Part shown: positions 1-56,429 of the stretch, in pieces
Layout: every line of letters begins with the position of its first letter
Position numbering within the stretch: the stretch's first letter is position 1
Assembly: GCF_044704955.1 (NCBI RefSeq)
Contig: NC_091987.1
Location: forward strand, 107,260,001-107,324,000
DNA from: Pristiophorus japonicus
Taxonomy: Eukaryota
DNA length: 64,000 nucleotides
Reading direction: 5' to 3'
Position numbers and translations under genes: made by a program
Notes under the pieces: generated by a model
What the model was told of the DNA's origin: nothing
Databases searched by the model: none
The model's input: the letters and a program-made list of their open reading frames with translations, nothing else

Positions 1-1411
1 AATTATAGACCGGTCAAGCATGACCTCAGTAGCGGGTAAAATGATGGAATCAATTATTAAGGATGTCATAGCAGTGCATTTGGAAAATGGTGACATGATA
101 GGTCCAAGTCAGCATGGATTTGTGACAGGGAAATCATGCTTGACAAACCTTCTGGAATTTTTTGAGGATGTTTCCAGTAAAGTGGACAAGGGAGAACCAG
201 TTGATGTGGTATATTTGGACTTTCAGAAGGCTTTCGACAAGGTCCCACACAAGACCTTAATGTGCAAAATTAAAGCACATGGGATTGGGGGTAGTGTGCT
301 GACGTGGATTGAGAACTGGTTGTCAGACAGGAAGCAAAGAGTAGGAGTAAATGGGTACTTTTCAGAATGGCAGGCAGTGACTAGTGGGGTACCTCAAGTT
401 TCTGTGCTGGGGCCCCAGCTGTTTACATTGTACATTAATGATTTAGATGAGGGGATTAAATGTAGTATCTCCAAATTTGCGGATGACACTAAGTTGGGTG
501 GCAGCGTGAGCTGCGAGGAGGATGCTATGAGGCTGCAGAGTGACTTGGATAGGTTAGGTGAGTGGGCAAATGCATGGCAGATGAAGTATAATGTGGATAA
601 ATGTGAGGTTATCCACTTTGGTGGTAAAAACAGAGAGACAGACTATTATCTGAATGGTGACAGATTAGGAAAAGGGAAGGTGCAACGAGACCTGGGTGTC
701 ATGGTACATCAGTCATTGAAGGTTGGCATGCAGGTACAGCAGGCGGTTAAGAAAGCAAATGGCATGTTGGCCTTCATAGCGAGGGGATTTGAGTACAGGG
801 GCAGGGAGGTGTTACTACAGTTGTACAGGGCCTTGGTGAGGCCACACCTGGAGTATTGTATACAGTTTTGATCTCGTAACTTGAGGAAGGACATTCTTGC
901 TATTGAGGGAGTGCAGCGAAGATTCACCAGACTGATTCCCGGGATGGTGGGACTGACCTATCAAGAAAGACTGGATCAACTGGGCTTGTATTCACTGGAG
1001 TTCAGAAGAATGAGAGGGGACCTCATAGAAACGTTTAAAATTCTGACGGGTTTCGACAGGTTAGATGCAAGAAGAATGTTCCCAATGTTGGGGAAGTCCA
1101 GAACCAGGGGTCACAGTCTAAGGATAAGGGGTAAGCCATTTAGGACTGAGATGAGGAGAAACTTCTTCACCCAGAGAGTGGTGAACCTGTGGAATTCTCT
1201 ACCACAGAAAGTAGTTGAGGCCAATTCAGTAAATATATTCAAAAGGGAGTTAGATGAAGTCCTTACTACTCAGAGGATCAAGGGGTATGGCGAGAAAGCA
1301 GGAAGGGGGTACTGAAGTGCATGTTCAGCCATGAACTCATTGAATGGTGGTGCAGGCTAGAAGGGCTGAATGGCCTACTCCTGCACCTATTTTCTATGTT
1401 TCTATGTTTCT
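1..1411 (+). mobile_element. CR1-clade LINE, 3' part of ORF2 (reverse transcriptase) plus 3' UTR
   Basis: ORFs 20-871 and 881-1315 carry [13 protein letters not shown], GVPQxSVLGP, FADDTK and RPHLEYC..F motifs; premature TGA at 869-871 where Trp is expected; ends in (TTTCTATG)n tail. Confidence 0.95.
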
Positions 1412-5610: not shown

Positions 5611-5621
5611 GCCTTTGAGAA

Positions 5622-5740
5622 GACAGAAAATGCTGCAAATAATCAGCAGGTCAGGCAACATCTGTGGAGAGAGAACCAGTGTTCACTTCTCAGGTTAAGA
5701 TGTTGCCTGACCTGCTGAGTATTTCCAGCATTTTATGCTG
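5622..5740. mobile_element. Short palindromic Penelope-type terminal fragment
   Basis: AAAATGCTGCAAATAATCAGCAGGTCAGGCAACATCT (~5627-5663) is inverted at ~5698-5734; same family as copies at 36615 and 56153. Confidence 0.6.
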
Positions 5741-6455
5741 TCGTTTCAGATTGATAGCATCCGTTCACAGAGGAAAATGGAAGATGCAGAAAGGAGGAAG
5801 CAGAATGAAGGATTCAACCCAGAGACAGCGTCCTTCTGGCTGGGATATCTGGAATGGAATCATCCCAGTGCCCACAACCCCAACTCCCCTTTCAATATTT
5901 GTCCCATAGCTTCCCTTCCTTGATGATTATCACTGTTGCATCACAAAGCAAATGTTCCAATCCATCTCTATACATCTAGCCATCCAATGCAACATCAAGA
6001 AATCAACTCATCACCCGTATGCATTCTCTTAGTGACTGTCCTGTGTGTGCCTGTGCCTACCCCAGTGGCTGCAGCATGGCTGCTGGAAGGCTGCTGACCT
6101 TCAGTGGGGGACACTGCAAATGACCTTGCTGGCCAACCTTGAGGAGCTGGTGGCAGGGAGTGTCAAATCAAGTGATGGTGTTTCATCATCATCTTCACTC
6201 TCCTCTCCCTCTTCTTGGCCAACCACTGGCTGAGCAAGGTGCATTTCTTGGGTGTGTGAAATGAGAAAGGCATAAGGGTGGAGTTGTGGTGAGGAGAGGG
6301 CGGGAAATTAAGAGGTGCATGCCAGAAGGAGAATGCTGTATGAGGATACTAGAAGCTTGTTGCTCCTCGCGCTCTCACGTTGTTTGTGGTCCCGCTGCTC
6401 GGCTCTCTTGCACCCTTTGTAGGGTTGCTGCTCCTCCTACTCTCGCATTGTTTGA

Positions 6456-36279: not shown

Positions 36280-36612
36280 GAGGGACTAGAGTTATGTGCG
36301 GAGATTAGAGAAGCTGGGATTGTTCTACTGATCTACCGGGGGGTGGGGGCGCAGAGAGGACACAGATTTAAGATAATTCGCAAAACTGTCACGGAGGAGA
36401 TGAGGAGAATTTTTTTCAAGCAGCGAGTTATTGTGATCTGGATTGCACTCCCTAAAGGGCGGTGGAAGCAGATTCAGTAGTTACTTTCAAAGGGGAATTG
36501 GACTTGGAAAAGGAAACATTTTCAGGACTATGGGGAAAGAGTAGGGGAGTGGGATTAAGTTATTTTAAAGAAGAGGCACAGACATGATGGGTCTCCTTCT
36601 GTCCTGTATGAT
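36280..36612 (+). mobile_element. Degraded CR1 3' fragment
   Basis: RGHRFKI..MRRIFF.QRVIVIW.ALP in the tail of ORF 35941-36480. Confidence 0.75.
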
Positions 36613-36614
36613 CT

Positions 36615-36720
36615 AATGAAAAACAGAGAATGCTGGAACACTCAGCGGGCCAGGCAGCATCTGTGGAGAGAGAAACAGAGTTAACATTTCAGGTCGATGA
36701 CCCTTCGTCAGCACTGGAAT
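36615..36720 (-). mobile_element. Penelope-type terminal fragment containing a minimal hammerhead-ribozyme motif
   Basis: Minus strand AGTG-CTGACGA-AG-GGTC-ATC-GACC-T-GAAA-TGTT-AACT (~36678-36715). Confidence 0.65.
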
Positions 36721-36771
36721 ATGTTCACTGTGATCATTTCCATGGTGTAAACGCACATGCGTTTGGTATTG

Positions 36772-39700
36772 TGCATACACACTCGATCCAGTCACACACA
36801 CACACACTCGATCCAGTCACACGTACACACTCGATCCAGTCACGCACATACACACTCGATCCAGTCACACACATACACACTCGATCCAGTCACACACATA
36901 CACACTCGATCCAGTCACGCACACACACTCGATCCAGTCACACGTACACACTCGATCCAGTCACACACATACACACTCGATCCAGTCACGCACACACACT
37001 CGATCCAGTCACACGTACACACTCGATCCAGTCACACACGTACACACTCGATCCAGTCACACACATACACACTCGATCCAGTCACGCACATACACACTCG
37101 ATCCAGTCACGCACATACACACTCGATCCAGTCACGCACATACACACTCGATCCAGTCACACACACACACACATTCAATCCAGTCACAGATACACTCGAT
37201 CCAGTCAAGCACACACACTCGATCCAGTCACGCATACACACTCGATCCAGTTGCGCACATACACACTCGATCCAGTCACACACACACATTCGATCCAGTC
37301 ACACACATACACATTCAATCTAGTCACACAAAAACACTCGATCCAGTCACACACACATACACTCAATCCAGTCACACACACTCAATCCAATCACACATAC
37401 ACACTCGATCATGTCACGCACATGCACACTCGATCCAGTCACACACACACACTCGATCCAGTCACACACACACATTCAATCCAATCACACACACTCACTC
37501 GATCCAGTCACATACACACACTCGATCCAGTCACACATACACTCGATCCAGTCACACACACACATTCGCTCCAGTCACACAGACACTCGATCCAGTCACA
37601 CACACTCTCACTCAATCCAGTCACACATACACACTCGCTCCAGTCACACAGACACTCGATCCAGTCACACAGACACTCGATCCAGTCACACACATACACA
37701 CTCGATCCAGTCACACATACACACTCGCTCCAGTCACACAGACACTCGATCCAGTCACACACACACATTCGCTCCAGTCACACACACTCACTCGATCCAG
37801 TCACACACACACACTCGATCCAGTCACACATACACACTCGCTCCAGTCACACAGACACTCGATCCAGTCACACACACTCACTCAATCCAGTCACACACAC
37901 TCACTCGATCCAGTCACACACACACACTCGATCCAGTCACACACACACACTCGATGCAGTCACACACACACACACTCGATCCAGTCACACACACACACTC
38001 GATCCAGTCACACATACACACTCGATCCAGTCACACATACACTCGATGCAGTCACACACACACTCTCGATCCAGTCACACACACACTCAATCAATTCACA
38101 CGCACATACACTCAATCCAGTCACACACACACATTCGATCCAGTCACACATACATACGATCCAGTCACACACACACATACACACTCGATTCAGTCACACA
38201 TACACTCGATCCAGTCACATACTCACACATGCACTCGATCCAGTCACACACACACACTCGATCCAGTCACACACACACACTCGATCCAGTCACACACATA
38301 CACTCGATCCAGTCACACACACACACTCGATCCAGTCACACACACACACTCGATCCAGTCACACACATACACTCGATCCAGTCACACACACACACTCGAT
38401 CCAGTCACATACACACACTCGCTCCAGTCTCACATGTACACTCGATCCTGTCACACACACACACTCGATCCAGTCACACACATACTCGATCCAGTCACAC
38501 ACATACTCGATCCAGTCACACACACACACTCGATCCAGTCACACACATACTCGATCCAGTCACACACATACTCGATCCAGTCACACACATACACTCGATC
38601 CAGTCACACACACACTCAATCCAGTCACACACATACACTCGATCCAGTCACACATACATACGATCCAGTCACACACACACATACACACTCGATTCAGTCA
38701 CACATACACTCGATCCAGTCACATACTCACACATGCACTCGATCCAGTCACACACACACACTCGATCCAGTCACACACACACACTCGATCCAGTCACACA
38801 CATACACTCGATCCAGTCACACACACACACTCGATCCAGTCACACACACACACTCGATCCAGTCACACACATACACTCGATCCAGTCACACACACACACT
38901 CGATCCAGTCACATACACACACTCGCTCCAGTCTCACATGTACACTCGATCCTGTTACACACACACACTCGATCCAGTCACACACATACTCGATCCAGTC
39001 ACACACATACTCGATCCAGTCACACACACACACTCGATCCAGTCACACACATACTCGATCCAGTCACACACATACTCGATCCAGTCACACACATACACTC
39101 GATCCAGTCACACACACACTCAATCCAGTCACACACATACACTCGATCCAGTCACACATACATACGATCCAGTCACACACACACATACACACTCGATTCA
39201 GTCACACATACACTCGATCCAGTCACATACTCACACATGCACTCGATCCAGTCACACACACACACTCGATCCAGTCACACACACACACTCGATCCAGTCA
39301 CACACATACACTCGATCCAGTCACACACACACACTCGATCCAGTCACACACACACACTCGATCCAGTCACACACATACACTCGATCCAGTCACACACACA
39401 CACTCGATCCAGTCACATACACACACTCGCTCCAGTCTCACATGTACACTCGATCCTGTCACACACACACACACTCGATCCAGTCACACACATACTCGAT
39501 CCAGTCACACACATACTCGATCCAGTCACACACACACACTCGATCCAGTCACACACATACTCGATCCAGTCACACACATACTCGATCCAGTCACACACAT
39601 ACACTCGATCCAGTCACACACACACTCAATCCAGTCACACACATACACTCGATCCAGTCACACACATACTCAGTCCAGTCACACACACACACTTGATCTA

Positions 39701-42700
39701 GTCACACACACACACTCGATCCCGTCACACACACACACACGCACATACACTCGATCCAGTCACATACACACACACGCACTTGATCCAGTCACACACACAC
39801 ACTCGATCCAGTCACACACATACACTCGATCCAGTCACACATACACTCAATCCAGTCACACACACACATTCGATCCAGTCACACACATACACTCGATCCA
39901 GTCACACATACACTCAATCCAGTCACACACACACATTCGATCCAGTCACACACACACTCGATCCAGTCACACACATACACTCGATCCAGTCACACATACA
40001 CTCAATCCAGTCACACACACACATTCGATCCAGTCACACATACATACGATCCAGTCACACACACACATACACACTCGATTCAGTCACAAATACACTCGAT
40101 CCAGTCACATACACACACACGCACTCGATCCAGTCACACACACACACTCGATCCAGTCACACACACACACTCGATCCAGTCACACACACACACTCGATCC
40201 AGTCACACACACACACTCGATCCAGTCACACACATACACTCGATCCAGTCACACACACACACTCGATCCAGTCACATACACACACTCGCTCCAGTCTCAC
40301 ATGTACACTCGATCCTGTCACACACACACACTCGATCCAGTCACACACATACTCGATCCAGTCACACACATACTCGATCCAGTCACACACACACACTCGA
40401 TCCAGTCACACACATACTCGATCCAGTCACACACACACACTTGATCTAGTCACACACACACACTCGATCCCGTCACACACACACACACGCACATACACTC
40501 GATCCAGTCACATACACACACACGCACTTGATCCAGTCACACACACTCGATCCAGTCACACACATACACTCGATCCAGTCACACATACACTCAATCCAGT
40601 CACACACACACATTCGATCCAGTCACACACATACACTCGATCCAGTCACACATACACTCAATCCAGTCACACACACACATTCGATCCAGTCACACACACA
40701 CTCGATCCAGTCACACACATACACTCGATCCAGTCACACATACACTCAATCCAGTCACACACACACATTCGATCCAGTCACACATACATACGATCCAGTC
40801 ACACACACACATACACACTCGATTCAGTCACAAATACACTCGATCCAGTCACATACACACACACGCACTCGATCCAGTCACACACACACACTCGATCCAG
40901 TCACACACACACACTTGATCCAGTCACACACACACACTCGATCCAGTCACACACATACACTCGATCCAGTCACACACACACACTCGATCCAGTCACACAC
41001 ACACACTCGCTCCAGTCTCACATGTACACTCGGTCCTGTCGCACACATACACTCGATCCAGTCACACACATACTCGATCCAGTCACACACACACACTCGA
41101 TCCAGTCACACACACACTCAATCCAGTCACACACATACACTCGATCCAGTCACACACATACTCAGTCCAGTCACACACACACACTTGATCTAGTAACACA
41201 CACACACTCGATCCCGTCACACACACACACTCGCACATACACTCGATCCAGTCACATACACACACACGCACTTGATCCAGTCACACACACACACTCGATC
41301 CAGTCACACACATACACTCGATCCAGTCACACACACACACACTCGATCCAGTCACACGCACACACTCGCTCCAGTCTCACACGTACACTCGATCCTGTCA
41401 CACACACACACACTAGATCCAGTCACACACACACTCGATCCAGTCACACACATACTCGATCCAGTCACACACTCGATCCAGTCACACACACACTTCATCT
41501 AGTCACACACACACACTCGATCCTGTCACACACACACTCGATCCAGTCACGCACACACTCGATCCTGTCACACACACACACTCAACCTAGTCACACACAC
41601 ACTCGATCCCGTCACGCACACACTCGATCCAGTCACACACTCACTATCTCGATCCAGTCACACACACACACACTCGATCCAGTCACACACACACACTCGA
41701 TCCAGTCACACATACACACTCGATCCAGTCACACATACACTCGATGCAGTCACACACACTCGATCCAGTCACACACACACTCAATCAATTCACACGCACA
41801 TACACTCAATCCAGTCACACACACACATTCGATCCAGTCACACATACATACGATCCAGTCACACACACACATACACACTCGATTCAGTCACACATACACT
41901 CGATCCAGTCACATACTCACACATGCACTCGATCCAGTCACACACACACACTCGATCCAGTCACACACACACACTCGATCCAGTCACACACATACACTCG
42001 ATCCAGTCACACACACACACTCGATCCAGTCACACACACACACTCGATCCAGTCACACACATACACTCGATCCAGTCACACACACACACTCGATCCAGTC
42101 ACATACACACACTCGCTCCAGTCTCACATGTACACTCGATCCTGTCACACACACACACTCGATCCAGTCACACACATACTCGATCCAGTCACACACATAC
42201 TCGATCCAGTCACACACACACACTCAATCCAGTCACACACATACTCGATCCAGTCACACACATACTCGATCCAGTCACACACATACACTCGATCCAGTCA
42301 CACACACACTCAATCCAGTCACACACATACACTCGATCCAGTCACACATACATACGATCCAGTCACACACACACATACACACTCGATTCAGTCACACATA
42401 CACTCGATCCAGTCACATACTCACACATGCACTCGATCCAGTCACACACACACACACTCGATCCAGTCACACACACACACTCGATCCAGTCACACACATA
42501 CACTCGATCCAGTCACACACACACACTCGATCCAGTCACACACACACACTCGATCCAGTCACACACATACACTCGATCCAGTCACACACACACACTCGAT
42601 CCAGTCACATACACACACTCGCTCCAGTCTCACATGTACACTCGATCCTGTCACACACACACACTCGATCCAGTCACACACATACTCGATCCAGTCACAC

Positions 42701-45700
42701 ACATACTCGATCCAGTCACACACACACACTCGATCCAGTCACACACATACTCGATCCAGTCACACACATACTCGATCCAGTCACACACATACACTCGATC
42801 CAGTCACACACACACTCAATCCAGTCACACACATACACTCGATCCAGTCACACACATACTCAGTCCAGTCACACACACACACTTGATCTAGTCACACACA
42901 CACACTCGATCCCGTCACACACACACACACGCACATACACTCGATCCAGTCACATACACACACACGCACTTGATCCAGTCACACACACACACTCGATCCA
43001 GTCACACACACACTCGATCCAGTCACACACATACACTCGATCCAGTCACACATACACTCAATCCAGTCACACACACACATTCGATCCAGTCACACATACA
43101 TACGATCCAGTCACACACACACATACACACTCGATTCAGTCACAAATACACTCGATCCAGTCACATACACACACACGCACTCGATCCAGTCACACACACA
43201 CACTCGATCCAGTCACACACACACACTCGATCCAGTCACACACACACACTCGATCCAGTCACACACATACACTCGATCCAGTCACACACACACACTCGAT
43301 CCAGTCACACACACACACTCGCTCCAGTCTCACATGTACACTCGGTCCTGTCACACACATACACTCGATCCAGTCACACACATACTCGATCCAGTCACAC
43401 ACACACACTCGATCCAGTCACACACACACTCAATCCAGTCACACACATACACTCGATCCAGTCACACACATACTCAGTCCAGTCACACACACACACTTGA
43501 TCTAGTAACACACACACACTCGATCCCGTCACACACACACACTCGCACATACACTCGATCCAGTCACATACACACACACGCACTTGATCCAGTCACACAC
43601 ACACACTCGATCCAGTCACACACATACACTCGATCCAGTCACACACACACACTCGATCCAGTCACACGCACACACTCGCTCCAGTCTCACACGTACACTC
43701 GATCCTGTCACACACACACACACTAGATCCAGTCACACACACACTCGATCCAGTCACACACATACTCGATCCAGTCACACACTCGATCCAGTCACACACA
43801 CACTTGATATAGTCACACACACACACTCGATCCTGTCACACACACACTCGATCCCGTCACGCACACACTCGATCCAGTCACACACTCACTATCTCGATCC
43901 AGTCACACACACACACACACTCGATCCAGTCACGCACACACACACTCGCTCCAGTCACACACATACACTCGATCCAGTCACACACACACTATCTCGATCC
44001 AGTCACACATACACACTCGATCTAGTCACACACACACTCGCTCCAGTCACACACACACACTCGCTCCAGTCACACACACACTCGATCCAGTCACACATAC
44101 ACACTCGATCTAGTCACACACACACTCGATCCAGTCACACACACACACTCGCTCCAGTCACACACACACACTCGCTCCAGTCACACACATACACTCGATC
44201 CCGTCACACACACACTCGCTCCAGTCACACACATACACTCGATCCAGTCACACACACACTCGCTCCAGTCACACACACACACTCGCTCCAGTCACACACA
44301 TACACATTCAATCTAGTCTCACACACACACACACTCGATCCAGTCACACACATACACTCGATCCCGTCACACACACACTCGCTCCAGTCACACACATACA
44401 CTCGATTCCGTCACACACACACTCGCTCCAGTCACACACATACACTCGATCCAGTCACACACACACACTCGATCCAGTCACACACACACGATCCAGTCAC
44501 ACACACATACTTGATCCAGTCACACACTCAATCCAGTCAAACACATACACTCGATCCAGTCACGCACACACACACTCGCTCCAGTCACACACATACACTC
44601 GATCCAGTCACACACATACACATTCAATCTAGTCTCACACACACACACACTCGATCCAGTCACACACATACACACTCGCTCCAGTCACACACACACACTC
44701 GATCCAGTCACACACACACACTCGATCCAGTCACACACATACACTCGATCCAGTCACACACACACACTCGATCCAGTCACATACACACACTCGCTCCAGT
44801 CTCACATGTACACTCGATCCTGTCACACACACACACTCGATCCAGTCACACACATACTCGATCCAGTCACACACATACTCGATCCAGTCACACACACACA
44901 CTCGATCCAGTCACACACATACTCGATCCAGTCACACACACACACTTGATCTAGTCACACACACACACTCGATCCCGTCACACACACACACACGCACATA
45001 CACTCGATCCAGTCACATACACACACACGCACTTGATCCAGTCACACACACTCGATCCAGTCACACACATACACTCGATCCAGTCACACATACACTCAAT
45101 CCAGTCACACACACACATTCGATCCAGTCACACACATACACTCGATCCAGTCACACATACACTCAATCCAGTCACACACACACATTCGATCCAGTCACAC
45201 ACACACTCGATCCAGTCACACACATACACTCGATCCAGTCACACATACACTCAATCCAGTCACACACACACATTCGATCCAGTCACACATACATACGATC
45301 CAGTCACACACACACATACACACTCGATTCAGTCACAAATACACTCGATCCAGTCACATACACACACACGCACTCGATCCAGTCACACACACACACTCGA
45401 TCCAGTCACACACACACACTTGATCCAGTCACACACACACACTCGATCCAGTCACACACATACACTCGATCCAGTCACACACACACACTCGATCCAGTCA
45501 CACACACACACTCGCTCCAGTCTCACATGTACACTCGGTCCTGTCGCACACATACACTCGATCCAGTCACACACATACTCGATCCAGTCACACACACACA
45601 CTCGATCCAGTCACACACACACTCAATCCAGTCACACACATACACTCGATCCAGTCACACACATACTCAGTCCAGTCACACACACACACTTGATCTAGTA

Positions 45701-48700
45701 ACACACACACACTCGATCCCGTCACACACACACACTCGCACATACACTCGATCCAGTCACATACACACACACGCACTTGATCCAGTCACACACACACACT
45801 CGATCCAGTCACACACATACACTCGATCCAGTCACACACACACACACTCGATCCAGTCACACGCACACACTCGCTCCAGTCTCACACGTACACTCGATCC
45901 TGTCACACACACACACACTAGATCCAGTCACACACACACTCGATCCAGTCACACACATACTCGATCCAGTCACACACTCGATCCAGTCACACACACACTT
46001 CATCTAGTCACACACACACACTCGATCCTGTCACACACACACTCGATCCAGTCACGCACACACTCGATCCTGTCACACACACACACTCAACCTAGTCACA
46101 CACACACTCGATCCCGTCACGCACACACTCGATCCAGTCACACACTCACTATCTCGATCCAGTCACACACACACACACTCGATCCAGTCACACACACACA
46201 CTCGATCCAGTCACACATACACACTCGATCCAGTCACACATACACTCGATGCAGTCACACACACTCGATCCAGTCACACACACACTCAATCAATTCACAC
46301 GCACATACACTCAATCCAGTCACACACACACATTCGATCCAGTCACACATACATACGATCCAGTCACACACACACATACACACTCGATTCAGTCACACAT
46401 ACACTCGATCCAGTCACATACTCACACATGCACTCGATCCAGTCACACACACACACTCGATCCAGTCACACACACACACTCGATCCAGTCACACACATAC
46501 ACTCGATCCAGTCACACACACACACTCGATCCAGTCACACACACACACTCGATCCAGTCACACACATACACTCGATCCAGTCACACACACACACTCGATC
46601 CAGTCACATACACACACTCGCTCCAGTCTCACATGTACACTCGATCCTGTCACACACACACACTCGATCCAGTCACACACATACTCGATCCAGTCACACA
46701 CATACTCGATCCAGTCACACACACACACTCAATCCAGTCACACACATACTCGATCCAGTCACACACATACTCGATCCAGTCACACACATACACTCGATCC
46801 AGTCACACACACACTCAATCCAGTCACACACATACACTCGATCCAGTCACACATACATACGATCCAGTCACACACACACATACACACTCGATTCAGTCAC
46901 ACATACACTCGATCCAGTCACATACTCACACATGCACTCGATCCAGTCACACACACACACACTCGATCCAGTCACACACACACACTCGATCCAGTCACAC
47001 ACATACACTCGATCCAGTCACACACACACACTCGATCCAGTCACACACACACACTCGATCCAGTCACACACATACACTCGATCCAGTCACACACACACAC
47101 TCGATCCAGTCACATACACACACTCGCTCCAGTCTCACATGTACACTCGATCCTGTCACACACACACACTCGATCCAGTCACACACATACTCGATCCAGT
47201 CACACACATACTCGATCCAGTCACACACACACACTCGATCCAGTCACACACATACTCGATCCAGTCACACACATACTCGATCCAGTCACACACATACACT
47301 CGATCCAGTCACACACACACTCAATCCAGTCACACACATACACTCGATCCAGTCACACACATACTCAGTCCAGTCACACACACACACTTGATCTAGTCAC
47401 ACACACACACTCGATCCCGTCACACACACACACACGCACATACACTCGATCCAGTCACATACACACACACGCACTTGATCCAGTCACACACACACACTCG
47501 ATCCAGTCACACACACACTCGATCCAGTCACACACATACACTCGATCCAGTCACACATACACTCAATCCAGTCACACACACACATTCGATCCAGTCACAC
47601 ATACATACGATCCAGTCACACACACACATACACACTCGATTCAGTCACAAATACACTCGATCCAGTCACATACACACACACGCACTCGATCCAGTCACAC
47701 ACACACACTCGATCCAGTCACACACACACACTCGATCCAGTCACACACACACACTCGATCCAGTCACACACATACACTCGATCCAGTCACACACACACAC
47801 TCGATCCAGTCACACACACACACTCGCTCCAGTCTCACATGTACACTCGGTCCTGTCACACACATACACTCGATCCAGTCACACACATACTCGATCCAGT
47901 CACACACACACACTCGATCCAGTCACACACACACTCAATCCAGTCACACACATACACTCGATCCAGTCACACACATACTCAGTCCAGTCACACACACACA
48001 CTTGATCTAGTAACACACACACACTCGATCCCGTCACACACACACACTCGCACATACACTCGATCCAGTCACATACACACACACGCACTTGATCCAGTCA
48101 CACACACACACTCGATCCAGTCACACACATACACTCGATCCAGTCACACACACACACTCGATCCAGTCACACGCACACACTCGCTCCAGTCTCACACGTA
48201 CACTCGATCCTGTCACACACACACACACTAGATCCAGTCACACACACACTCGATCCAGTCACACACATACTCGATCCAGTCACACACTCGATCCAGTCAC
48301 ACACACACTTGATATAGTCACACACACACACTCGATCCTGTCACACACACACTCGATCCCGTCACGCACACACTCGATCCAGTCACACACTCACTATCTC
48401 GATCCAGTCACACACACACACACACTCGATCCAGTCACGCACACACACACTCGCTCCAGTCACACACATACACTCGATCCAGTCACACACACACTATCTC
48501 GATCCAGTCACACATACACACTCGATCTAGTCACACACACACTCGCTCCAGTCACACACACACACTCGCTCCAGTCACACACACACTCGATCCAGTCACA
48601 CATACACACTCGATCTAGTCACACACACACTCGATCCAGTCACACACACACACTCGCTCCAGTCACACACACACACTCGCTCCAGTCACACACATACACT

Positions 48701-49614
48701 CGATCCCGTCACACACACACTCGCTCCAGTCACACACATACACTCGATCCAGTCACACACACACTCGCTCCAGTCACACACACACACTCGCTCCAGTCAC
48801 ACACATACACATTCAATCTAGTCTCACACACACACACACTCGATCCAGTCACACACATACACTCGATCCCGTCACACACACACTCGCTCCAGTCACACAC
48901 ATACACTCGATTCCGTCACACACACACTCGCTCCAGTCACACACATACACTCGATCCAGTCACACACACACACTCGATCCAGTCACACACACACGATCCA
49001 GTCACACACACATACTTGATCCAGTCACACACTCAATCCAGTCAAACACATACACTCGATCCAGTCACGCACACACACACTCGCTCCAGTCACACACATA
49101 CACTCGATCCAGTCACACACATACACATTCAATCTAGTCTCACACACACACACACTCGATCCAGTCACACACATACACACTCGCTCCAGTCACACACACA
49201 CACTCGATCCAGTCACATACACACACTCGATCCAGTCACACACACACACTCCATCCAGTCACACACACACACTCCATCCAGTCACACACACACACTCGCT
49301 CCGGTCACACACATACACTCAATCCAGTCACACACACACACACTCGCTCCAGTCACACACACACTCAATCCAGTCACACACAGACACTCGATCCAGTCAC
49401 ACACACACACTCGATCTAGTCACACACACACAGCCGATCCAATCACACATACACACTCGATCCAGTCACACACAGACACTCGATCCAGTCACAAACACAC
49501 ACTAGATCCAGTCACACACACACTCAATCCAGTCACACACACACATTCGATCCAGTCACACACATACTCAATTCAGTCACACACATACACTTGATCCAGT
49601 CGCACATACACTCA
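36772..49614 (+). repeat. Satellite/minisatellite array, unit TCGATCCAGTC(AC)n, ~19-27 bp
   Basis: Continuous array visible directly, with 504-, 2312- and 4505-bp higher-order periods. Confidence 0.99.
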
Positions 49615-52654: not shown

Positions 52655-54412
52655 ACACATACATTCGATCCAATCACACATACACACTCGATCCAATCAC
52701 ACATACACTCGATCCAATCACACATATACACTCGATCCAATCACACATGTACACTCGATCCAATCACACATACACTCGATCCAATCACACATACACACTC
52801 GATCCAATCACACATACACTCGATCCAATCACACATACACACTCGATCCAATCACACATACACTCGATCCAATCACACATACACACTCGATCCAATCACA
52901 CATACACTCGATCCAATCACACAGACACTCTATCCAATCACACAGATACTTGATCCAATCACATACACACACTCGGTCCAATCACATACACACACTCGAT
53001 CCAATCACACATACACTCGATCTATTCACACATACACTCGATCCAATCACATACACATTCGATCCAATCACACATACACTCGATCCAATCACACACACAC
53101 ATTCGATTTAAACACACATACACTCGATCCAGTCACACATACACTCGATCCAGTCACACACACACACTTGATCCAGTCACACACATACACTCGACCCAGT
53201 CACATATACTAGATCCAGTCACATACACTTGATCCAGTCACTCTCACACACTCGATCCAGTCACACACACACACTCGATCCAGTCACACACACACACTCG
53301 ATCCAATCACATACATTCGATCCAGTCACATACACACACTCGATCCAGTCACACACACACACTCGATCCAATCACATACACTCTATCCAGTCACACACAC
53401 TCGATCCAGTCACATACACATACTCGATCCAGTCAGATATACACACTCGATCCAGTCACACACGCACACTCGATCCAGTTACACACACATAGTCGATCCA
53501 ATTACACATACACTCGCTCCAGTCACACACACACTCAATCCAGTCACACACACTCGATCCAGTCACACACACACACAGACTCGATCCAGTCACACACACA
53601 CAGTCGATCCAGTCACACACATACACTCGATCCAGTCACACACATACACACTTAATCCAGTCAGACACATACATTCGGTCCAGTCACATATACACACTCG
53701 ATCCAGTCACACACACACACTCGATCCAATCACATACACTCGATCCAGTCACACACACTCGATCCAGTCACATACGCTCGATCCAGTCACATACACACAC
53801 TCGATCCAGTCACACATACACTCAATCCAATCACATATACACTCGATCCAATCACACATACACTCGATCCAATCACACATACACTCGATCCAATCACACA
53901 GACGCTCGATCCAATCACACAGACACTTGATCCAATCACATACACACACTCGATCCAATCACATACACACACATTCGATCCAATCACACATACACTCGAT
54001 CCAATCACACACACACACTCGATTTAAACACACATACACTCGATCCAGTCACACATACACTCGACCCAGTCACATATACTCGATCCAGTCACATACACTC
54101 GATCCAGTCACACATACACACTCGATCCAGTCACACACATACACTCGATCCAGTCACACATACACACTCGATCCAGTCACACACATATACTCGATCCAGT
54201 CACACACATACACTCGATCCAGTCACACATACACACTCGATCCAGTCACACACATACACTCGATCCAGTCACACATACACACTCGATCCAGTCACACACA
54301 TATACTCGATCCAGTCACACACATACACTCGATCCAGTCACACATACACACTCGATCCAGTCACACACATACACTCGATCCAGTCACACATACACACTCG
54401 ATCCAGTCACAC
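52655..54412 (+). repeat. Satellite array, distal block enriched for the GATCCAATC variant
   Basis: Same unit, with runs of CCAATC in place of CCAGTC. Confidence 0.98.
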
Positions 54413-54780
54413 AACTCCACCACGGTTTCCCTCTCCATCTCCTCCCCCTCACCGTCCCCCACCCCCTCCGCACTCTGCAGCAGTTCAAGATATAAGCTCA
54501 CTATCGCCCTCACAAGGGCAAGTAGGGATGGTCAATAAATAAATGATTTTTTAAAAATTAGAGCATATTCTGTGTTGGTTCTACAGCATGCATAACATTA
54601 AATTTAGGTGTTATTTGCCGGACTCAACTTTCCAAAGTTCTCCTGGCCAGCCTCACATCTTCCACCGTTAATGAACTTGAGCTCATCCACAACTCTGTTG
54701 CCAGTATCCTCGCTCGCAGCAAGTCTCATTCATCCATCACCCTTGTGCTCGTTGACCTATTTTGGCTCCTGGTCCACCAA

Positions 54781-55556: not shown

Positions 55557-56152
55557 CTGAACTCGGCAATGTGAGTGCTCCTAACCCGGGAAGGTGAGCC
55601 CTGTCTGTTCTCTGAAAGCAGCAGGGTTAGCACTGTGAGCTCTGGAGCCTGGCGGTCACAATGAATGGATCAAATTGCACACTGCAAAGATCTTGATTAC
55701 TCTGGCAGGCAGGATAGAATTACACATTCCAGACAAACTGCTGGGTGTGTCTTGTCCTCCAAGGGGACCAATCAGAAATATGGTCGTCCTCCAAGGGGAC
55801 CAATCAGAAATCTGGTGTTGCAAATAAACACGACCAAATATGTTGGAGATGAACAGCTTTTAAGCAATTGCTGAGCCAGGGAAAAGGTGGCTGCAGAGGG
55901 GAAGAGGAGAGTGTGGGTGGGAAGGTGGCGGGGGGTTGGGGGGTGCGGGCAGCGGCGAGGGTGAGGTGGGAAGGAAAGAACAAGAAGGAAGGTTGAAGGG
56001 CAGGAGTGATTATGTGATAAAAGGCAAAATGAGGTGATCTTGAGACAAGTATGGAAACAAAAGATGGGTCCAGAGGAGGTGTAAATGGTTAAAGCAGAAT
56101 AGCAGAGGAGGAGGTAAAGTTTGGAAGGTTCCCGTGGCCAGTATAATTCTCT

Positions 56153-56256
56153 TCAGTTCTGACAAAAGGTCAGCAAGCTAAAATGTTAACTCTGTTCCCC
56201 TCTCTACAGATGCTGCCTGACCCACTGAGTAGTTTCAGTATTTTCTGTTTTTATTT
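56153..56256 (+). mobile_element. Short Penelope-type element with decayed hammerhead motif, flanked by a 14-bp direct repeat
   Basis: AGTT-CTGACAA-A-AGGTC..AAGCT-AAAA-TGTT-AACT; flanks CAGTATAATTCTCT at 56139-56152 and 56257-56270. Confidence 0.65.
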
Positions 56257-56429
56257 CAGTATAATTCTCTCTTTCTTTTCCTTGTCTTTTCTTTCGTTAT
56301 CACTGCATTAACCAAGAAAAGAAATACCAATCTGGAACAGTTAATTATAATAATTATATTAATTGTTAAAAATTACTTTGAAGAGCTTTAACATTTTATT
56401 TGCTTTAAAATATATTTTCTCCTCTTGTG

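Follow-up and report, generated by a model that had tools for sequence, protein, structure and literature searches.

In this stretch of Pristiophorus japonicus DNA (64,000 nt in full length, called the window below), a 104-nt insert that begins with a hammerhead-like sequence lies between two copies of a 14-nt direct repeat. The question is whether such an insert is a discrete mobile unit delimited by its own ribozyme, as an earlier note on this DNA had suggested, or a fragment of a larger retroelement, and what fixed its 5' end. We found that the insert is probably a short and old end-repeat insertion of a Penelope-like retrotransposon (PLE), made by the element's own reverse transcriptase (RT) and nuclease, and that the stubs of this family which begin at the ribozyme probably reflect run-off at the capped 5' end of the RNA.

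Layout of the locus

Positions in the element are numbered with +1 at window position 56153, which places A+3, the first base of helix I, at 56155. The features of the locus are listed below.

55839..55889, minus strand: continuation of the inverted piece, element -53..-2 (nhmmer E 2e-5)
55953..56100, minus strand: inverted stretch from this element's 3' UTR, -209..-42 (nhmmer E 3.3e-14; 121/150 aligned bases identical)
56101..56138, no strand: 38-nt linker that separates the left repeat from the inverted piece, with no family match
56139..56152, plus strand: left copy of the 14-nt direct repeat, exact; a target-site duplication (TSD) or a right-flank patch that was copied here
56153..56259, plus strand: forward stub from a Penelope-like end repeat, element +1/+2 to +107 (nhmmer E 5.8e-31)
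56155, plus strand: A+3, the putative transcription start of the family, from family data; the window copy has TC before it
56155..56191, plus strand: decayed minimal type I hammerhead, called from sequence and from family composition and pairing
56257..56270, plus strand: right copy of the 14-nt direct repeat; its first three bases are common to the element

The direct repeat described in the earlier note proved to be exact (56139-56152 and 56257-56270). Its initial CAG coincides with element positions +105..+107, and the other 11 nt are independent of the element. The 3' part of the left copy has 6/10 identity to element positions -8..+1, a possible junction microhomology, and the right flank (56257-56420) has a single match in the genome. 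The forward stub carries no optional tail of ~30 nt, and 14 of its 106 bases deviate from the family majority.

Three things had escaped the earlier note: the tens of thousands of copies, the extension of the family in both the 5' and 3' directions, and the inverted piece at 55839-56100. The alignment of segment 55839..55889 scored 51, compared to a maximum of 32 in 1000 shuffles; in element positions, this segment ends 2-3 nt short of the start of the forward stub. The linker is partly similar to 56071-56090 (75% over 20 nt). On its left, the inverted piece is adjoined by a different dispersed repeat with a 47-nt local duplication (55718-55837), and it may be this repeat that cut the piece. 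Elsewhere in the window the family is present as an inverted pair (5620-5763) and as a single minus-strand stub (36611-36727), the latter just before the first of two large arrays of short, CA/TG-rich tandem units (36773-49614 and 52655-54417).

The family and its parent element

The DNA search produced 2226 candidates, of which 40 were scored. A family 24-mer had 7272 exact matches in the genome, compared to 0 for the reversed control. In 80 stretches of 10 kb, chosen blind to content, 22 matches corresponded to 13 insertions with the 3' part (events counted by eye); extrapolation from ~16 insertions per Mb gives roughly 100,000 insertions genome-wide. The family reaches ~30 nt further 3' and more than 2 kb further 5' than the insert.

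Walking in the 5' direction, we met the motifs of a parent element with a single RT and GIY-YIG frame, whose stop is ~330 nt before the hammerhead; DKG is present as well, and RT and endonuclease (EN) are separated by a CX2-5CxxC linker. Homologues of the parent are proteins of 800-900 aa with RVT_1 and GIY-YIG domains; residues 264-891 of one of them (P0036) aligned by tblastn with a shark locus (L239) at E 1.6e-123, and the best named protein relatives come from cartilaginous fishes. The Pfam GIY-YIG model matched one shark copy at E 3.4e-4, just under the cut-off. There was no RVT_1 match on the decayed shark copies themselves, and a PDB search with the RT fragment gave 0 matches. Three loci (L316, L330 and L333) showed the partial tandem arrangement, with the repeat followed by the tail, the leader and an ATG near +172.

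By its sequence, then, the insert is a terminal-repeat stub of an EN+ Penelope-like element. The assignment to the Neptune type is a putative one, made by motifs and not by a tree, and the CX2-5CxxC linker also occurs in Nematis.

Several loci deviated from the majority structure. A sister subfamily (L403, L418, L419, L423, L424, L426 and L431) has a different sequence just 5' of the hammerhead, with GG before +2. Four loci (L235, L186, L175 and L130) have internal deletions in the 3' UTR, in two cases at about -200 to -115. Among the protein matches, P0004, P0013 and P0015 are annotated ray or skate gene isoforms with RT-like stretches, probably annotation run-on or exonised copies.

Matching contigs numbered in the thousands in the sequence runs of each of four other organisms (B, C, D and E). 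In organism D, one contig spans 56181-56445 with 34 differences and crosses the 3' junction of the insert; therefore, the insertion is likely older than the split from D. Among the matches listed from other organisms, none was a contig joint skipping the insert (an empty site), which proves nothing.

The hammerhead in the window copy and in the family

The earlier note had read the start of the insert as a hammerhead core with two G>A changes and an AGUU:AACU helix I, related it to the minimal hammerheads of Penelope-like elements and judged the copy probably dead. All of this was borne out. Helix I (AGTT/AACT) is intact, the core CTGACAA carries G8>A (56164), and further hits are G12>A (56180), a C>T change in the palindrome (56184) and the breakage of two of the five helix II pairs. 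The cut is predicted between 56187 and 56188, and the window ribozyme is predicted to be inactive. An Rfam scan of the window copy found no hammerhead match at E<=10, and its plus strand folded no better than shuffles (z from -0.76 to -0.81); the call therefore rests on the order of motifs and on the family, and not on the window copy alone.

In the family majority the minimal hammerhead is intact, with CUGANGA, the extra base, helix II, GAAA, the palindrome, NUH and helix I. We worked with two samples of copies. Sample 1 consisted of 99 copies taken in genome order by one 24-mer (the first 100 of the 7272 matches, 99 of them distinct), while sample 2 consisted of 70 copies with an exclusive variant of the 24-mer (the first 70 of 578). 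An inverted pair counts twice if the 24-mer is in both arms, and the nhmmer ends are accurate to a few bases. The core was intact in 25 of the 57 copies of sample 1 that cover it; core, helix I and palindrome together were intact in 11.

Across the family, 89% of cells were paired in the hammerhead register, compared to 11-45% when the pairing was slid. Covariation in the sense of a two-sided change was seen in one pair only, and 399/500 shuffles reached as high a value; only one-sided changes were above noise. The association at pair 10.1-11.1 (p 2e-8) counts related copies and reflects few events. The hammerhead core also contains a competing hairpin. For one intact copy, the computed dimeric fold (-7.5 kcal/mol) was far less stable than an alternative duplex (-26.7 kcal/mol). 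Several copies (L347, L354, L356, L359, L416 and L245) are interrupted near +34/+35 by another repeat with a G-rich start, at the place where the AT-rich palindrome and the predicted cut also lie.

Ends of the copies

The 3' ends in sample 1 were bimodal, at +99..109 in 44/99 copies and at +133..136 in 42/99, which agrees with a 30-40 nt tail delimited by two internal RT starts as in PMC11167929. For the two samples combined, the 5' end was at +9 or later in 64/169 copies, within -12..+8 in 41/169 and further upstream in 64/169. An excess of 5' ends at the ribozyme is nevertheless clear. The rate of 5' ends per base was 0.033 at +2..+8 (24/105 copies at risk; 17/64 and 7/41 in the two samples), compared to 0.002-0.006 upstream of -12 and 0.003-0.010 at +23..+75. 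The claim that the insert starts at the ribozyme thus has a family-wide counterpart in this excess, but as a rule for the family it fails, since only 41/169 copies start at -12..+8. A second, minor hotspot may exist at -200..-101, with 19/169 of the 5' ends.

The predicted cut site at +36 was the start of only 2/169 copies, and for this reason we rejected ends defined by cleavage. It is likely that the 5' boundary was set by the 5' end of the RNA and not by the ribozyme.

For the TSD test, 97 of the 99 copies of sample 1 were examined (two were dropped because the flank was too short) and 33 inverted copies were set aside. Exact flanking repeats of at least 8 nt were found in 12/64 non-inverted copies, compared to 1.5% of mismatched flank pairs. 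By length class, they were present in 2/14 short copies (those starting at the ribozyme), 7/33 long copies and 3/17 copies of the third class.

These data bear on the proposal of a distinct non-autonomous element, retrozyme-like or SINE-like, with a unit of ~105-135 nt and masters of its own. In its favor are ~700 clean starts at +3 by the exact pattern described below, which scale to an estimated 4-5 thousand, and TSDs of at least 7 nt in 8/21 clean +3 copies. Tandem retrozyme families with a mean of 363 bp are also described for one chondrichthyan (bioRxiv 10.64898/2026.07.22.740005). The sole head-to-tail dimer found (L272:1373-1653) joins -45..141 to another copy that begins at +2 and has a G in front of it. 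On the other hand, a tail-to-head tandem pattern with a gap of up to 60 nt had one match genome-wide, compared to 7272 for the single 24-mer (the two patterns differ in length). In a comparison of 23 short and 37 long copies, which has low power, none of 128 positions was diagnostic at p<0.05 (smallest p 0.06); divergence was equal (0.107 and 0.110), and so was the ratio of tail forms (11:11 and 16:16), in these small groups. Moreover, self-cleavage cannot set the unit free, because its start precedes the cut by 33 nt. We consider such an element very improbable. The idea of a discrete retrozyme-like unit with two shared boundaries, put forward in the earlier note, is not upheld: there are no alleles of its own, 5' ends are scattered, 3' ends fall at two sites and TSDs occur at all lengths.

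A second alternative is ordinary 5'-truncated Penelope debris, in which structure in the RNA or cDNA (fold-back, template switching), together with microhomology, would make the ends pile up. Under this alternative, the G described in the next section would be a target preference or an untemplated addition by the RT. An inverted arm was present in 51/169 copies, many junctions have short microhomologies, the peak of 5' ends is broad (+1..+6), and the competing hairpin in the core could contribute. Conversely, the peak survived when inverted copies were left out (16/83 at risk at +2..+8), and it is located at the 5' arm of helix I and not at the 3' foot, where structure would be expected to stall the RT. 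We regard ordinary debris as an unlikely explanation.

An extra G before the first base of the ribozyme

To count starts at +3 genome-wide, we used a pattern that forbids both element bases before A+3, along with a control built alike at +27. There were 1005 exact matches for the +3 start and 215 for the control. G adjoined the start in 59 of 100 matches listed, compared to 26 for the position one base further out and 25/100 in the control (counted by eye; p 2e-6). The first 30 of the +3 loci comprised 21 clean starts, 7 inverted copies and 2 copies in which the element continued. In the clean +3 starts, G preceded the element in 18/21 cases against a background before AGTT of 0.367 (p 5e-6), compared to 0/9 for clean starts in the +27 control. 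The base beyond the junction base was T in 9, A in 10 and G in 2 of the clean +3 copies, i.e., it was not common to them.

Loci not chosen on the junction showed the same tendency, with G in 6/9 clean +3 starts. Both +3 copies in the unbiased 0.8 Mb have the G as well (one of them, L137, is also among the nine). In four loci (L213, L137, L351 and L363) the TSD is followed by one or more extra bases ending in G and then by the element; the G is not part of the TSD here. Judged by eye, about eight +3 copies have it within the TSD, and the target continues with A, AG or AGT. A G of this kind is templated by the target, and only selection by microhomology ties it to the cap.

Starts at +4 were as frequent as those at +3 (1167 matches; 17/30 clean, with G before 7/17). 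For +2 there were 1418 matches and 11/30 clean starts, with G before 5/11, and some of these belong to the sister subfamily. GG before +2 was considered as a second G signal and dropped, because most such cases were the sister subfamily with upstream sequence continuing. Of 30 loci examined, three were near full length and had a 5' hammerhead repeat that could be recognised; they start at -448 (L316), -83 (L330) and -244 (L333), and thus in 0/3 cases at +3. The window copy itself begins at +1/+2 without the extra G.

For the debris alternative, the breadth of the peak and the frequent position of G within the TSD are favorable, whereas the restriction of the G excess to +3, its absence at +27 and the G's outside TSDs are not. 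We think it likely that the G before A+3 is a reverse-transcribed cap. In full-length L1 insertions, an extra G at the 5' junction is a known mark of the cap (PMC11702581). The DNA signature itself is well supported and, from DNA only, points to the first base of the ribozyme as the capped start of the family's RNA.

In a literature search that did not extend to subscription papers, Repbase or supplements, no title or opening of an abstract dealt with hammerheads of shark PLEs or with a G of cap origin at PLE junctions. In the majority line, the surroundings of A+3 fit the initiator consensus, with an A/T-rich box ~30 nt upstream.

A further way to fix this boundary would be splicing, with the pyrimidine tract and CAG before +5 acting as a 3' splice site and a first exon ending in G-A-G. 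Positions -8..+4 do resemble an acceptor, and +5 accounted for 10/33 clean starts in the blind set. The intron of Penelope in D. virilis is described as ending where helix I begins on its 5' side (PMC4209133, PMC2377424). Against this, the outer bases are not common among the clean +3 copies, which would leave an exon only about three bases long, and the +5 starts have no common upstream sequence. Splicing is, in our estimate, highly improbable as the source of the boundary.

Proposed course of insertion

Under the preferred reading, run-off at a capped RNA end, transcription would begin at A+3, where helix I starts. The protein would then nick the target DNA and prime reverse transcription in the leader at one of two sites; for an anole element, two internal priming sites were demonstrated in vitro (PMC11167929). 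After 100-135 nt the RT would meet the cap and copy it as C, and the end would be joined to the target, often through G-A-G microhomology, leaving a TSD. Longer copies would come from a read-through tandem RNA or from a template jump.

More tentatively, the product may be likened to a 'strong-stop' cDNA: the RT, primed in the leader of a capped RNA that starts at the hammerhead's first base, might copy the cap and then either join the target or jump along the RNA. If so, such jumps would be the way in which terminal repeats and long copies are built, and the genome would hold thousands of cap-marked stubs. Two loci show a suggestive arrangement. In L179:1549-1893, the ORF-start sequence of the same element (position 599) is followed directly by a repeat that begins at +3 with G, and in L212:447-1145 (position 233) by one that begins at +1. 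Either could possibly be a template jump after run-off, or a later insertion into an older copy.

The window copy: one event or two

For the window copy, a single compound 5'-inverted insertion with a copied patch is favored over pure cap run-off, because the G is lacking and the inverted upstream piece ends where the stub begins; we hold this reading with moderate confidence. The inverted piece (-209..-2) and the forward stub nearly abut in the parent, as is also the case in L220 and L199, and the internal breakpoints of twin-primed L1 inversions are reported to nearly abut (PMC11702581). At 16 insertions per Mb, chance adjacency would be expected in a few cases per thousand, whereas 30% of the copies are inverted. 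Two separate insertions are possible, at a lower probability. The 14-nt repeat sits at the inner junction, and in other inverted copies the long repeat is outside the pair; its position therefore fits two separate insertions better. By itself, the window copy is an ordinary decayed repeat.

Comparison with known systems

The kind of element found here is already known. According to PMC8557442 and PMC3846280, EN+ PLEs of the Neptune/Nematis type have, like the shark element, one ORF with DKG, RT, a CX2-5CxxC linker and, at its C-terminus, GIY-YIG. These sources also describe heavy 5' truncation, pLTRs in partial tandem, inverted 5' pieces, an optional tail of 30-40 nt, TSDs and a hammerhead in the pLTR. 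The ORF of the shark element starts after the tail (about +172), while that of the Neptune/Nematis-type elements starts inside the pLTR (PMC8557442, PMC3846280). Stubs that share one 5' end and have an additional G are not among the features that these two accounts describe. For a rotifer pLTR, a TATA/initiator pair has been put forward (PMC3846280), and an internal promoter with a start 46 bp before the intron is reported for D. virilis Penelope (PMC2377424).

It is likewise known that PLEs leave minimal hammerheads behind as dispersed remnants (PMC4209133, PMC6155905). The metazoan motifs described in PMC4209133 share with those of the shark a 4-bp helix I, an extra base between 9 and 10.1, a palindromic 15.2-16.2 and the absence of helix III, and they are mostly single, dispersed motifs that come from truncated PLEs. 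Compared to that description, the shark helix II has 5 bp, and its 10.1-11.1 pair is G-C in 43 of 300 stretches, G-U in 112 and A-U in 123, with A-C avoided (5).

In Anolis Poseidon (PAc), as characterized in vitro, two internal RT starts define the tail, product length is determined by the template's 5' end, and the account in PMC11167929 gives no sign that ribozyme cleavage makes the end of the inserted RNA; all of this resembles the shark family. PAc differs in that it belongs to another clade and its ORF starts at stem II, and that account reports no signature of a cap or start site (PMC11167929). The non-LTR retrozymes of bioRxiv 10.64898/2026.07.22.740005 are similar to the shark stubs in being short, in carrying a type I hammerhead and in their derivation from PLE pLTRs. 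However, they are described as units arrayed in tandem, each having a ribozyme, with a circular RNA running from cut to cut, whereas the shark copies are single and their unit start is not at the cut.

A parallel to the junctions is found in L1, where full-length and 5'-inverted insertions have, like this family, an extra G at the 5' junction, in L1 from the cap, and nearly abutting inversion breakpoints (PMC11702581). Because L1 primes at the poly(A) tail, copies with the cap G have a length of 6 kb there, while internal priming in the shark element would give 100-135 nt. The cap-like G at the stubs that start at the ribozyme bears on how PLE terminal repeats are built and what role the hammerhead has, and it amounts to a base-level prediction of the RNA start in a vertebrate element, placed on the ribozyme's first base; the genomic copies argue that the inserted RNA was not cut by the ribozyme.
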